Shown piece by piece: positions 27,218-32,274 of a stretch of 64,000 nt of DNA (its first letter is position 1; each line of letters begins with the position of its first letter). The position numbers and the translations under genes were made by a program. Source of the stretch: Bacteroidota bacterium (GTDB lineage Bacteria > Bacteroidota > Bacteroidia > Flavobacteriales > Flavobacteriaceae); NCBI GenBank assembly GCA_043778105.1, contig JAYWGV010000061.1, positions 5,179-69,178 of the forward strand, read 5' to 3'. The notes beneath the pieces are model-generated. The model saw only the letters and a program-made list of their open reading frames with translations, ran no database searches and was not told the DNA's origin.

Positions 27218-27805
27218 TTATACCTTGTAAAAAACATCTTCAAGTGCAATTTTTAAATCAGGAAATAAAGGACTATTAATATTTTCATCTTCCGATTGAG
27301 GCTTTAAACCTATGTATTCACCATTTCTTAGCGTATAAATTAAGAGTAATTTTTCAAATGGTTCAATCAACCAATATTCTAGAACTCCGGCTTCTTGATA
27401 CAATTTGAATTTGGTATCGACATCGTGTTTGCTATTATTTGGTGAAATAATTTCTACAATCAAATCTGGAACACCATTACATCCTTTTTTATCTAATTTA
27501 GTTTCGTCACAAATAATACACAAATCTGGTTGAACAACAGTTGAATCTTTTTTTTCTGATTGAATTGGCAATCTGACATCAAACGGAGCTTGAAAAACCC
27601 TACAAGGTTTCCTTTTTAAATTTTCATAAAAACAACCTGTCAAATTATTAGAAATTGTCTGATGCATCATACTTGGTGCTGGACTCATCTTTAAAATAAA
27701 TCCTTTTATAAGTTCTACTCTTTCTTGAAATTGCCATTTCAAATAATCAGAATAACTATAAGTTTGGGTTAAATCTAAATCAGATAAATTATAAACTATT
27801 GACAT
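27218..27805 (-). CDS. Uma2 (DUF820) family endonuclease-like protein
   Basis: PDLIVEIISP...K...YQEAGVLEYWLIEP is the PD-(D/E)xK Uma2 signature. I prefer ATG 27805 over the TTG at 27826. Confidence 0.75.
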   Translation of the reverse strand: MSIVYNLSDLDLTQTYSYSDYLKWQFQERVELIKGFILKMSPAPSMMHQTISNNLTGCFYENLKRKPCRVFQAPFDVRLPIQSEKKDSTVVQPDLCIICDETKLDKKGCNGVPDLIVEIISPNNSKHDVDTKFKLYQEAGVLEYWLIEPFEKLLLIYTLRNGEYIGLKPQSEDENINSPLFPDLKIALEDVFYKV

Positions 27806-27856
27806 TGATGCTAATTTTAAAAACAAATTTAATGAATAAATTAGAATAAAATACTG

Positions 27857-29539: not shown

Positions 29540-30264
29540 TACAATTTAGAAGATTTTAGTTTGTAAACTGTCAATAATAAAAATACAAATGTCACGCTCG
29601 AAAAATACAAAACATCACGGGTATCAATCACGCCACGACTCATAGATTTAAAGTGATAATCCATTCCAAATGATGCGATTAAGTTTTGTATGAATGGCAA
29701 ATAATTTGCAATTCCTTGAAATCCAAAGTAAAAAATAAAACACAGAAAAACAGAGATTATAAACGCAACTATTTGATTATCTGATAGCGTTGAAGTAAAA
29801 ATTCCAATTGCGCTGTAACTTGCAATTAGAAATATTAATCCGAAATAAGATCCAAATGTACTACCTAAATCAATATTGCCTTCTGGATTTCCTAAACTAG
29901 AAATCACGAGTATATATATATAGGTAGGAATTATTGCAATGAAAATAAGTAACATTGCGCCTAAAAATTTTCCGTTTACAATTTGCCAAAGACTCAACGG
30001 TTTGGTCAATAACAATTCTAAAGTTCCTAATTTCCTTTCATCAGAAAAACTGCGCATTGTTACGGCTGGAATCAAAAAAATCAAAATCCAAGGTGAAATA
30101 GTAAAAAACGGAGTCAAATCGGCAAAACCTGAATTCATAATGTTGTATTGCCCATCGAAAACCCACAAAAATAATCCGTTGATAATCAAGAAAATCGCTA
30201 TAACCAAATAGCCAATTGGCGACCCAAAAAATGATTTTATTTCTCTAAGAAGTATTGCTTTCAT
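29539..30264 (-). CDS. gldF: gliding-motility ABC-2 permease GldF
   Basis: Six-TM ABC-2 permease beginning MKAILLREIKSFFGSPIGY. It overlaps gldG by 1 nt. Confidence 0.8.
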   Translation of the reverse strand: MKAILLREIKSFFGSPIGYLVIAIFLIINGLFLWVFDGQYNIMNSGFADLTPFFTISPWILIFLIPAVTMRSFSDERKLGTLELLLTKPLSLWQIVNGKFLGAMLLIFIAIIPTYIYILVISSLGNPEGNIDLGSTFGSYFGLIFLIASYSAIGIFTSTLSDNQIVAFIISVFLCFIFYFGFQGIANYLPFIQNLIASFGMDYHFKSMSRGVIDTRDVLYFSSVTFVFLLLTVYKLKSSKL

Positions 30265-30308
30265 AAATTTTTTTTAATTTCTAAAAGTATAAGTTTATCA
30301 TAAAATGA

Positions 30309-30316
30309 CAAATTTA
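30309..30316 (-). promoter_or_regulatory. -7 box TAAATTTG (gldF)
   Basis: TAnnTTTG match, 44 nt upstream of the gldF ATG. This means gldFG have their own promoter downstream of the cassette. Confidence 0.45.
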
Positions 30317-30325
30317 GGTTCTTTT

Positions 30326-30907
30326 TTATGTTTTTAGCTTCCTATCTTTACAATTGATGCTTTTTTTATCTAATAAACAAATTATGAATAATGGAGATAA
30401 ATAGGTGTAATAATCTAGTCCATCAACAAAATTTATTTTTTCTTTTATTATATGATTTTCTTGTAAATCAGGTAGATTTTCATCTGCTCTAAAATAAATA
30501 AAAGGGAATTTTCCCGAATCTGTTAGATTTAATTTTTTTAAGAATTCTATCCAAACTCCAATTTTCCATTTAATTGATTCTGGTCTTTTTGCAATAAATA
30601 ATTCTCTCAATTCGTTAAAATATTTCAAGCTTCTTCTGTCTAAAAAATCTAATAAGTCATCTTTATTTATTTGCAAATCTGAATATTCAACAATGTCATA
30701 ATCATTTTGATAATGTTTAAAACCCCATCTTTTTGCAGCTTGTAAATTTTCTTCCCATAAATAGAAACCTTCGCCTAAAAAAGGCATAGATATTTTTCCA
30801 AACTCATTCTTTTTTATTAAAGATTTAAAAGGAGCCTCTTTTAATATGTAGGCTGGTTGTCCTTTTTTGCAAGTATGCTGGTAGGTATATAAAACAAAAT
30901 TACTCAT
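30326..30907 (-). CDS. 193-aa protein of unknown function (candidate effector/toxin of the SecB-like cassette)
   Basis: Its start overlaps the stop of the SecB-like gene by 8 nt (ATGAGTAA). The coding DNA is very AT-rich. Motifs are VLYTYQH and FLGEGFYLWEENLQAAKRWG. Confidence 0.6.
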   Translation of the reverse strand: MSNFVLYTYQHTCKKGQPAYILKEAPFKSLIKKNEFGKISMPFLGEGFYLWEENLQAAKRWGFKHYQNDYDIVEYSDLQINKDDLLDFLDRRSLKYFNELRELFIAKRPESIKWKIGVWIEFLKKLNLTDSGKFPFIYFRADENLPDLQENHIIKEKINFVDGLDYYTYLSPLFIICLLDKKSINCKDRKLKT

Positions 30908-31307
30908 TATCCAAATCGATCAAAGTTTCAATTAATTGTTCTTTATGACTTGATAAATTTAAAGTTGGTAATGTAATTGTATCAAAACCGCTTAACGAAG
31001 TAAAAGATGACACAAAGCTTCTAATATAAGGAAATACAATCGCTGGACCATTAACAGAAAGAAAGTTTAAAAGCAATTGTTCATCTTCAGTGTCATATTC
31101 AAAAATACCTACGCATAGCATTTTTAAATTAAAATCGTTTTCTGTATCAAATATTTTTAAATCAATATTGATATGAAACTGCTTATTTTTTCTGCTGATT
31201 ACTGCTTGTGGTATAACTTCAAAAATATTTTCTGGTTGATCAACTTGAACTTTCTCAAATAAAAAATTGGGAACAACAAAGTTTACAAAATTTAATTGTG
31301 ATTTCAT
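30900..31307 (-). CDS. SecB-like chaperone
   Basis: CVGIFEY...NGPAIVFPYIRSFVSSFTSLSGFDTITLPTLNL aligns by eye with the E. coli SecB core AGIFSI...[32 protein letters not shown]. Confidence 0.7.
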   Translation of the reverse strand: MKSQLNFVNFVVPNFLFEKVQVDQPENIFEVIPQAVISRKNKQFHINIDLKIFDTENDFNLKMLCVGIFEYDTEDEQLLLNFLSVNGPAIVFPYIRSFVSSFTSLSGFDTITLPTLNLSSHKEQLIETLIDLDNE

Positions 31308-31309
31308 AT

Positions 31310-31603
31310 TTACTTATTTTTTTGTTTTAAAAAAAAAAGGACCTTATTTAGGTCCTGTTTAATGTTTTCTTTTAAATTTATTGATTTTCTTTCTTGTTTA
31401 TCAAAAAACTTAAATAATTCAAATTTTTTGTATTTATTGGATAAGTAATTATGGAAATTAATATTGTCATTAAACAAAAAACTTTCTTGTTCAATTTCAT
31501 AACTATCAAATTCTTTCATAATATTATCTAATTCAATAGCCGATATAGATTCGACAAATCTTTTATTTAGTTCTAAAGACTTTGTCATTACACTAGAATA
31601 CAT
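31310..31603 (-). CDS. 97-aa protein of unknown function (first gene of the SecB-like cassette)
   Basis: A 97-codon ORF in DNA of roughly 20% G+C. Its stop lies 2 nt before the SecB-like ATG. Its last 15 codons contain a terminator-like hairpin. Confidence 0.5.
   Translation of the reverse strand: MYSSVMTKSLELNKRFVESISAIELDNIMKEFDSYEIEQESFLFNDNINFHNYLSNKYKKFELFKFFDKQERKSINLKENIKQDLNKVLFFLKQKNK
31329..31356 (-). terminator. terminator-like hairpin plus U9-10 tract inside the 3' end of the 97-aa ORF
   Basis: The minus strand reads AGGACC-TAAATAA-GGTCCT followed by a T-run. It ends 22 nt upstream of the SecB-like ATG. Confidence 0.55.
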
Positions 31604-31767
31604 AATTTTATATTTTTAATTAGAAATTTTATTTTACAACTCTAACTATTTGATTCAAATTTGAAATAAAAAGATACTTTAATTTGTAATATTTTTAATT
31701 CTATACAAAAATACAATTTTCTTTTAATTATCCAAATAAAAATTAAAAGCTTATTTTTAGAAAAACT

Positions 31768-32064
31768 TTAAACCAAACTAACTAACTTATCAACCGACCA
31801 AGCTTCTGGTTTTGCGTTAAATAATGCTTTTGTAAATTTCCAAACCTTGCCAAAAAGTTCAGATTTTCTGTAATTTTCTAAATCATTTTCGGTTTCCCAA
31901 TAACTATATGTAAAAAAAATATTCGAATCATTTTTATCTTGGTACAATTCTAACAAACGGTTTCCAGGCGAATTTCGTATTTTTTCTTTATTAAATTCAA
32001 AATTTTCTAAAAAAGCAGGAATATGCTCTTCATGAAAACTCATTTTAACTATTCTAACAAACAT
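31768..32064 (-). CDS. antibiotic-biosynthesis-monooxygenase (ABM)-like small protein
   Basis: 98 aa with a ferredoxin-like ABM pattern (VRIVKMSF...FTYSYWETENDLENY). Confidence 0.6.
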   Translation of the reverse strand: MFVRIVKMSFHEEHIPAFLENFEFNKEKIRNSPGNRLLELYQDKNDSNIFFTYSYWETENDLENYRKSELFGKVWKFTKALFNAKPEAWSVDKLVSLV

Positions 32065-32067
32065 AAT

Positions 32068-32274
32068 GATTTTAGATTTTAGATTAACGATTTTAGATTT
32101 CAGATTATAAACTGAAAACGAAACTGTGACTGAAAACTGAACACTAAATAACTGAACACTGAAAACTGAACACTAAATAACTGAACACTGAATACTAAAT
32201 ACTGAACACTAAATACTGAATACTAAATACTGAACACTGAACACTAAACACTGCCTACTGAACACTGAAAACTA
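32068..32274. repeat. ~205-bp degenerate heptamer array
   Basis: Six GATTNNA units are followed by about 22 units of type (G/A)AA(C/T/A)ACT, such as GAACACT, AAATACT, GAATACT and GAAAACT. Confidence 0.85.

Follow-up and report, generated by a model that had tools for sequence, protein, structure and literature searches.

A probable CmdTAC-family toxin-antitoxin-chaperone cassette with rotated gene order in a Flavobacteriaceae contig

The stretch of DNA analysed here (hereafter, the window) comprises 64,000 nucleotides (nt) of contig JAYWGV010000061.1 from a member of the Flavobacteriaceae (assembly GCA_043778105.1). Listing of its open reading frames (ORFs) and inspection of the sequence reveal a cassette of three co-directional minus-strand ORFs of 97, 135 and 193 amino acids (aa), the first of which carries a terminator-like hairpin near its 3' end. 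Our analysis suggests that the cassette is very likely a toxin-antitoxin-chaperone (TAC) abortive-infection system of the CmdTAC (PD-T4-9) family, in which the gene order is rotated to antitoxin-chaperone-toxin (A-C-T). The features of the cassette are as follows:

31310..31603, minus strand: putative antitoxin ORF of 97 aa, first gene of the cassette (ORF listing)
30900..31307, minus strand: SecB-like chaperone ORF (CmdC-like) of 135 aa (ORF listing; PADLOC, Pfam)
30326..30907, minus strand: CmdT-family ADP-ribosyltransferase-like toxin ORF of 193 aa (ORF listing; PADLOC)
31328..31356, minus strand: hairpin AGGACCUAAAUAAGGUCCU plus U10, resembling an intrinsic terminator and located within the 3' end of the antitoxin ORF (terminator scan)

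The stop codon of the antitoxin lies 2 nt before the ATG of the chaperone (TAA-AT-ATG), and the chaperone and toxin ORFs share 8 nt (ATGAGTAA), an overlap which suggests translational coupling. A first-pass annotation of this DNA had described the three packed ORFs with this junction and overlap, a SecB-like middle protein and a TAC-like module with the chaperone unusually in the middle. All of these points are borne out by the sequence and by the profile searches described below.

The 193-aa protein matches the PADLOC profile PD-T4-9_A (PDLC04068, E 8.5e-17), with residues 8-190 aligned to positions 6-174 of the 187 in the profile, and it also matches PDLC04069 (E 7.5e-9); no family was found for it in Pfam, NCBIfam or PHROGs. 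A word-indexed search gave 17 close relatives and an exhaustive profile search gave a family of 430 clusters at 50% identity, of which all 136 diverse members sampled match PD-T4-9_A. These profile matches place the toxin in the CmdT (PD-T4-9_A) family. The partners of the chaperone had earlier been called unrecognised after comparison with HigBA, MqsRA and HicAB only; this does not hold for the toxin, nor for the 97-aa protein, the N-terminus of which is CmdA-like (see below). In the alignment of the 136 toxin sequences G47, Y49 and G62 never vary (Y49: 136 of 136); 126 sequences have H at position 11, and position 143, which is E in our protein, is D in 98 and E in 24 (122/136). The spacing of H11, Y49, W61 and E143 resembles that of H21, Y54, Y65 and E148 in diphtheria toxin.

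The PD-T4-9 system (PMC9519451) was renamed CmdTAC by Vassallo et al. (PMC11618068; E. coli ECOR22) and is also described in the preprint of Mets et al. (10.1101/2024.02.24.581848), E. coli O112ab:H26 being among the type systems. CmdT has been reported to be a diphtheria-toxin-type ADP-ribosyltransferase, which acts on single-stranded RNA, where it modifies adenine at N6 within GA dinucleotides, and which blocks translation; it has an H-Y-[E,D,Q] triad, and the catalytic Y41A mutant is inactive (PMC11618068). Judged from the alignment, H11, Y49 and E143 match this triad. A word-indexed search with the toxin family alignment returned 39 matches, none of them from E. coli. Searches with tblastn for the CmdT family found nothing in phages and, in plasmids, partial Acinetobacter and Psychrobacter matches alone. 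One CmdT-family protein (P0122) stems from a eukprot TRINITY contig of a eukaryotic transcriptome and most likely reflects bacterial contamination.

The 135-aa protein matches the PADLOC profile PD-T4-9_C (E 2e-18) and also the Pfam family SecB (PF02556, E 6.9e-9), where its 36.2 bits exceed the gathering score of 26. The profile of the chaperone family matches SecB chains alone in the PDB, at almost full length (1fx3/1ozb, 4.2e-6; 1qyn and 5jtl, ~9e-5). In PHROGs, unannotated families are matched by the chaperone and by neither of the other two cassette proteins. A housekeeping SecB was considered and rejected, as the protein falls far short of every NCBIfam cut-off for that chaperone: it reaches 36.9 bits against a cut-off of 143 for NF004392, its best match, and 31.4 bits against a cut-off of 102.8 for TIGR00809, both of them NCBIfam equivalogs. 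By these profile matches, the protein is SecB-like and of the CmdC (PD-T4-9_C) family. CmdC of E. coli is a SecB-like tetramer which protects the antitoxin CmdA from ClpXP; newly made T4 capsid protein draws CmdC off, upon which CmdA is degraded and CmdT is freed (PMC11618068).

In CmdA itself, a small antitoxin, two helices at the N-terminus are followed by a disordered tail with LAA at its end (PMC11618068); its sequence is highly variable (PMC9519451, PMC11618068). The 97-aa protein matches no family in Pfam, PADLOC, NCBIfam or PHROGs. This says little, because the PADLOC model PD-T4-9_B, which misses the 97-aa protein, likewise fails to detect 6 of 8 canonical Bacteroidota CmdA sequences, and because CmdA is so variable. 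A hidden Markov model (HMM) of canonical CmdA was built from 40 ORFs lying between toxin and chaperone genes in loci with the canonical order toxin-antitoxin-chaperone (T-A-C). It matches the window-type antitoxin of locus L005 (5.5e-5), and the HMM of the window-type antitoxins matches canonical CmdA of locus L071 (6.2e-5). Comparison of the 97-aa family with the N-terminus of canonical CmdA using hhalign aligns residues 6-38 (probability 72%, E 3.4e-5), and the N-terminal motif KSLE..F.E....EL....D is common to both. The AlphaFold2 model of the 97-aa protein has helices at residues 3-19 and 22-41, the rest being below 50 in predicted local distance difference test (pLDDT; mean 49.5).

The C-terminal half of the 97-aa protein is rich in aromatic residues (YKKFELFKFFD ... 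KVLFF), which are the known currency of chaperone-addiction regions, and this half may be the part that binds the chaperone. The protein ends in ...KVLFFLKQKNK and its relatives end in ...VLFF; an Ala-Ala tail is not present. Every window-type locus has this antitoxin ORF conserved ahead of its SecB-like gene. On profile comparisons, which are weak, the 97-aa protein is probably a divergent CmdA-like antitoxin. At one locus (L008:5301-5575) the antitoxin ORF is broken by an in-frame stop after 42 codons (…EKVNY, stop, FYGYESF…), whereas the genes for the chaperone and the toxin seem undamaged. The stop might stem from an error in sequencing or mark a system in decay; alternatively, the toxin may be restrained in some other way.

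The small ORF, the SecB-like gene and the 193-aa gene are conserved together in at least 11 unrelated genomic contexts, and because all three are kept together in this manner they are taken to be genes and not chance ORFs. In L001 and L006 the context is an element encoding an integrase and a relaxase, in L007 it is a run of small uncharacterised ORFs, and the remaining contexts include other chromosomal sites; in none of these do the flanking genes of the window accompany the triad. Identity to the relatives declines in the order C > T > A. With 24.6% G+C, the cassette falls in the 2nd percentile of stretches of its size in the window, where the median is 31.4%. Since A-C-T recurs in so many contexts, including the integrase and relaxase elements, and since the cassette is so low in G+C, the triad moves as a unit between unrelated places. 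The first-pass annotation had pointed to the low G+C and had proposed a neighbourhood check of whether the triad is conserved as a unit. The latter it is, and the dip in G+C is real but much smaller than the earlier hand counts implied, gldG having 31.3% and not ~40%.

In L001:6870-12582 and L006:1-8003 the window-type cassette lies beside a tyrosine integrase and a relaxase, and so these two cassettes appear to be on an integrative mobilisable or conjugative element. The L001 cassette also adjoins ThiF / Multi_ubiq / BubE-family genes and an M78 peptidase, a setting which looks like a defence island. A cassette-free allele was not seen, as every strain with an identical ABM protein (the upstream neighbour in the window) carries the cassette.

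Gene order was surveyed in 80 genome, 19 viral and 80 metagenome loci encoding CmdT relatives, which were classified with locally built T, C and A profiles on mechanical ORF calls; the locus sets are biased to Bacteroidota, the candidates having been ranked by similarity to the window protein. Among the non-redundant loci, the architecture is T-A-C in 91, A-C-T in 30 and T-A without a SecB-like gene in 25, the order of the window being present in 30 of the 121 chaperone-containing loci. In an unbootstrapped neighbour-joining tree of T, the loci with A-C-T order fall into two distinct clades, a Flavobacteriia type (including the window) and a Bacteroidales type. Because each of the two is nested among T-A-C lineages, the tree suggests, though it is no proof, that the rotation of gene order arose more than once. 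The chaperone-less loci make up a large clade, mainly from Saprospiraceae, Cytophagales and Chitinophagales (L029, L031-L034, L036-L038, L040, L042, L048, L050, L051, L053, L054, L057, L058, L077 and others). They have a CmdA-like ORF directly downstream of the toxin and no SecB-like gene within +/-4 kb, and are presumably chaperone-independent CmdTA, that is, ordinary two-gene toxin-antitoxin modules. The CmdT family is therefore seen in three states, namely T-A without a chaperone, T-A-C and A-C-T.

It is because the toxin and the chaperone belong to the CmdT and CmdC families that we read the cassette as a rotated CmdTAC. Membership of these two families, the H-Y-E motif, the conserved mobile triad and the hairpin come directly from our analysis, and by homology to E. 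coli CmdTAC we infer how the cassette would work. The 193-aa protein would be an NAD+-dependent ADP-ribosyltransferase which modifies single-stranded mRNA and halts translation. The N-terminal helices of the 97-aa protein would bind and neutralise this toxin, and a tetramer of the SecB-like chaperone would hold the aromatic-rich C-terminal half, stabilising the antitoxin. During infection, a newly made phage structural protein would compete for the chaperone and the antitoxin would be lost; the freed toxin would then block translation and the infection would be aborted. The 8-nt overlap may make translation of the toxin depend on translation of the chaperone. The hairpin and U-run inside the antitoxin ORF would most likely cause partial termination of transcription after the antitoxin, which would leave more message for the antitoxin than for the chaperone and the toxin, and the terminated antitoxin message would have no stop codon. 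Phage defence, which had been raised as a possibility in the first-pass annotation, is the most likely role of the cassette.

Several observations weigh against the assignment to CmdTAC. The AlphaFold2 model of the toxin is very confident (pLDDT 96.8), but Foldseek gives no match to it in the PDB at E <= 1e-3. The weak top PDB matches of the toxin model belong to the ADP-ribosyltransferase (ART) superfamily (RES-type toxin 8gug_A at E 0.039, PARP1 and MbcT; TM 0.34-0.46), and its best BFVD match (E 9.5e-4) is to phage polyvalent proteins, a type in which ART-PolyVal domains occur; the toxin profile finds no meaningful match among PDB sequences. The structural support for an ART fold is weak, though consistent. 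The published CmdT model also superposes poorly on exotoxin A, with a root-mean-square deviation of 6.9 A (PMC11618068). The apparent equivalence of Y49 to Y41 of ECOR22 CmdT runs through the PADLOC HMMs and not through a direct alignment, and the homology of the 97-aa protein to CmdA is marginal. Its lack of the Ala-Ala degron for ClpXP, which CmdA of E. coli requires, and the departure of A-C-T from the canonical T-A-C order are further points, as are the absence of phage or mobile-element genes flanking the cassette in the window and the fact that triggers and targets of CmdTAC are known from E. coli and none from Flavobacteriia.

In the window, the cassette is flanked by housekeeping genes and has neither defence genes nor mobile-element genes as neighbours, as might be expected of a stress-responsive or addiction TAC which stabilises its DNA segment and has no part in phage defence, like the original view of M. 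tuberculosis HigBA1-SecB. The same is suggested by those relatives that sit on relaxase- and integrase-bearing integrative elements, for which addiction would be profitable. However, both experimentally tested CmdTAC systems defend against phages and one relative adjoins candidate defence genes (ThiF/Multi_ubiq/BubE), which makes a pure addiction role rather improbable in our view; addiction and defence are moreover not mutually exclusive. Another possibility, which we regard as very unlikely, is that the 97-aa ORF encodes a regulator or an unrelated small protein and that the toxin is neutralised by the SecB-like protein alone or by an unannotated product. The lack of a library family, the marginal similarity to CmdA and the low-confidence AlphaFold2 model are all compatible with this. 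On the other hand, the 97-aa gene co-occurs and co-diverges with the other two in every window-type locus and is placed directly upstream of the chaperone, like CmdA in T-A-C loci. It also has the N-terminal motif in common with canonical CmdA, most of which the PADLOC B model misses too.

The hairpin AGGACCUAAAUAAGGUCCU with its U10 lies inside the antitoxin ORF, the stop codon of which (31312-31310) is located 25 nt further downstream. Its RNA fold is predicted at -14.3 kcal/mol (z -4.15), and none of 200 shuffled sequences is as stable; no Rfam family matched it. Hairpin and T-run are kept at the same position in all window-type relatives, with stems which differ among them (GGACC/GGTCC; GAAC/GTTC in L010; GAGCTC/GAGCTC in L011). 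In an alignment of 11 hairpin sequences, 90.9% of cells pair and 4 of 7 pairs have changed on both sides, whereas slid controls of the alignment show no two-sided changes. The aligned sequences indicate that the hairpin has undergone compensatory changes within the window clade. The Bacteroidales A-C-T clade and a subset of T-A-C loci have hairpins of unrelated sequence at the corresponding position; in the T-A-C subset, translating the A-tract, stem, loop, stem and T-tract yields the peptide signature KKDSE...SESFF. Hairpins are found in at least 4-5 separate clades. Downstream of the T-run the residues lack conservation, and they shift with T8, T9 or T10 between near-identical strains. Depending on the length of the T-run at 31328-31337 and at the same site in L002/L003, L090 and L092, the antitoxin ends in FF, FFKTKNK or FFLKQKNK before the stop codon; L090 is otherwise 100% identical in A and C.

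In the 121 non-redundant chaperone-containing loci, an antitoxin ending in -AA without a hairpin is seen in 63, a strong hairpin without -AA in 45, both in 3 and neither in 10, so that the two features are near-exclusive (Fisher p ~9e-20, kinship of loci being ignored). An independent second set alone gives 36, 22, 2 and 4 in the same order. Random 85-nt segments score as hairpin-positive in 3.9% of cases (stricter criterion, >=3 G-C pairs). The CmdA sequences ending in -AA (66 of 121 surveyed) have encoded tails with the consensus N-K-N-[FY]-[IAL]-[LKN]-A-A, which resemble the end of the ssrA tag. The hairpin is present in 25 of 30 A-C-T loci as against 20 of 91 T-A-C loci, and in all hairpin loci (45/45) the stop codon is downstream of the stem, by 2-58 nt. 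In the chaperone-less T-A loci the hairpin is found in 0/25 and the -AA tail in 3/25.

Among the rare loci with both a hairpin and T-run and an -AA tail are L100 (IMGVR_UViG_2065487000_000011) and L024 (a Moraxellaceae metagenome-assembled genome); in L100 the tail ...FTLDFFYLAA is read directly after the T-run. These two may be transitional forms between the two antitoxin designs. The idea that the hairpin is a relic of a terminator at the end of a T-A operon was rejected, as none of the 25 chaperone-less T-A loci has one. Transcriptional slippage in the T-run giving the -AA frame was likewise rejected on reading the alternative frames of the sequence. No gene for transfer-messenger RNA (tmRNA) was found in the 64-kb window, so the tag of the host is not readable there.

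The hairpin may tentatively be taken as an intra-operon attenuator or translation-coupled terminator, which sets the antitoxin : chaperone : toxin ratio or shuts the downstream genes when translation fails. The T-run-encoded ...LFF tail would then be an incidental by-product, or else an alternative aggregation or degron element. Its terminator-like anatomy and stability agree with such a function, as does the enrichment in A-C-T loci, where ending after the antitoxin would favour antitoxin over toxin. Since the hairpin is inside the ORF, it could be suppressed by a ribosome translating through it, and TAC antitoxins without a ClpXP degron are known. However, attenuation alone leaves unexplained the near-exclusivity of hairpin and -AA tail and the fact that the stop codon never precedes the hairpin, and in T-A-C loci a terminator in front of the chaperone gene would reduce the supply of the very subunit that each complex requires in 4 copies. 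Both of the unexplained features would follow if the hairpin were a programmed source of non-stop antitoxin mRNA, on which ribosomes stall and tmRNA adds a ...LAA ClpXP degron in trans. This is a doubtful proposal, and one which would refine rather than replace the CmdTAC explanation. It draws support from the distribution of the two features in the 121 loci and in the second set, from the invariably downstream stop codon, and from the chaperone-less loci, which have no hairpin and few -AA tails. Stems unrelated between clades and compensatory within the window clade, the lack of conservation after the U-run and the likeness of the encoded -AA tails to the ssrA tag end point the same way. A terminator before the stop codon is said, after the 1996 work of Keiler, Waller and Sauer, to be the classical way to get ssrA tagging.

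On the opposite side, the terminator activity of the hairpin is a prediction from sequence, and chaperone and toxin need read-through transcripts, which would also yield untagged antitoxin. Some TAC antitoxins work without ClpXP, HigA of E. coli NT1F31 ending in Leu-Pro, and the association statistics ignore kinship, although at least 4-5 separate clades carry hairpins. Literature searches found no precedent for a tmRNA-tagged antitoxin arising through an in-ORF terminator, and a partial or translation-sensitive terminator is more probable a priori than non-stop mRNA. It is rather unlikely that chaperone-dependent CmdA comes in two interchangeable designs, one with an ssrA-like ...AA degron and the other with an in-ORF terminator and a tmRNA degron in trans. 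If true, this would be a natural use of trans-translation as a built-in part of a toxin-antitoxin or immune switch, the firing of which would be tied to transcription-translation coupling and ribosome rescue, and tagging by tmRNA would be a new way for the cell to attach a degron. The hairpin-or-Ala-Ala pattern is in itself a testable lead on how the instability of TAC antitoxins is engineered.

The neighbours of the cassette are housekeeping genes, as had been noted earlier, with gldF/gldG-type ABC-2 genes, a Uma2-family gene and dnaN downstream and an ABM monooxygenase gene upstream. Two promoter-like motifs are located around it:

31706..31713, minus strand: Bacteroidota-type -7 promoter-like motif TAnnTTTG (TATTTTTG), ~100 nt upstream of the antitoxin start (pattern search)
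30316..30309, upstream of gldF: TAAATTTG motif (pattern search)

The TATTTTTG motif sits in the 164-nt AT-rich intergenic region 31604-31767. Because TAnnTTTG occurs ~1 per kb per strand in the window, TATTTTTG and TAAATTTG are weak evidence for a cassette promoter and a gldF promoter, respectively; the latter motif, from which the first-pass annotation had drawn a gldF promoter, is indeed present. Between the toxin stop codon and gldF (30265-30325) the terminator scan found no terminator-like site, the sole one in 30000-32200 being that inside the antitoxin ORF. For this reason cassette transcripts may read into gldF/gldG, unless they are stopped by something which the scan cannot detect. The Uma2-family gene (PF05685, putative restriction endonuclease; 27218-27826, minus strand) lies between gldG and dnaN. 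It is also at this spot in L089 and is missing in L003, where dnaN directly follows gldG, and in L090 a different 276-aa gene replaces it. The gldG-dnaN interval is a small variable spot adjoining the cassette.

Comparison with known systems places this anonymous Flavobacteriia cassette in an experimentally understood anti-phage family. E. coli CmdTAC was called in 2022 as CmdT, an ORF and a chaperone in that order (PMC9519451), and in 2024 as CmdT and CmdC within two genes (PMC11618068). By the 2024 rule the cassette would be called, its CmdC-like gene being adjacent to the toxin gene with the 8-nt overlap, whereas by the 2022 rule it would not, its order being antitoxin-chaperone-toxin. It resembles E. 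coli CmdTAC in its toxin family (PD-T4-9_A HMM, H-Y-[D/E], ~190 aa) and chaperone family (PD-T4-9_C HMM), in its antitoxin, which is small and variable, helical at the N-terminus and poorly ordered over its C-terminal half, and in being a compact mobile three-gene operon. Unlike E. coli CmdTAC, which is T-A-C, it is A-C-T; its antitoxin is without the Ala-Ala degron and carries an in-ORF terminator-like hairpin and U-run; and it is from a Flavobacteriia host, outside a prophage. The canonical-order Bacteroidota relatives (e.g. L030, L044, L049, L060, L073) have a hairpin-type antitoxin like that of the window, with a T-run-encoded FF tail and no -AA, but differ in their T-A-C order and in their stems, which are longer (10-12 bp) and of unrelated sequence. 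The chaperone-less CmdT-CmdA pairs (~25 loci) share the toxin family and have a CmdA-like ORF directly downstream of it, but differ in having no SecB-like gene nearby, almost no -AA tail and no hairpin.

Among TAC systems in general, M. tuberculosis HigBA1-SecB(TA) (Rv1955-Rv1957) and E. coli MqsRAC and HigBAC are similar in that a SecB-like chaperone controls the antitoxin via an aromatic-rich C-terminal chaperone-addiction region; phage defence has been demonstrated for MqsRAC and HigBAC. In contrast to the ART-like toxin here, their toxins are HigB/MqsR-type RNases; their antitoxins are unrelated and their chaperone is last. Our cassette has the general mark of a TAC, a SecB-like chaperone co-conserved with a toxin-antitoxin pair, with the chaperone in the middle and not last. 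The first-pass annotation had suggested a new TAC type; the cassette appears instead to be a gene-order variant of the published CmdTAC (PMC9519451, PMC11618068). The rotated A-C-T order, the missing Ala-Ala degron and the in-ORF hairpin are departures from the type CmdTAC within a TAC type already known, and they extend CmdTAC to an A-C-T architecture which order-based detection rules (toxin, ORF, chaperone) would miss.

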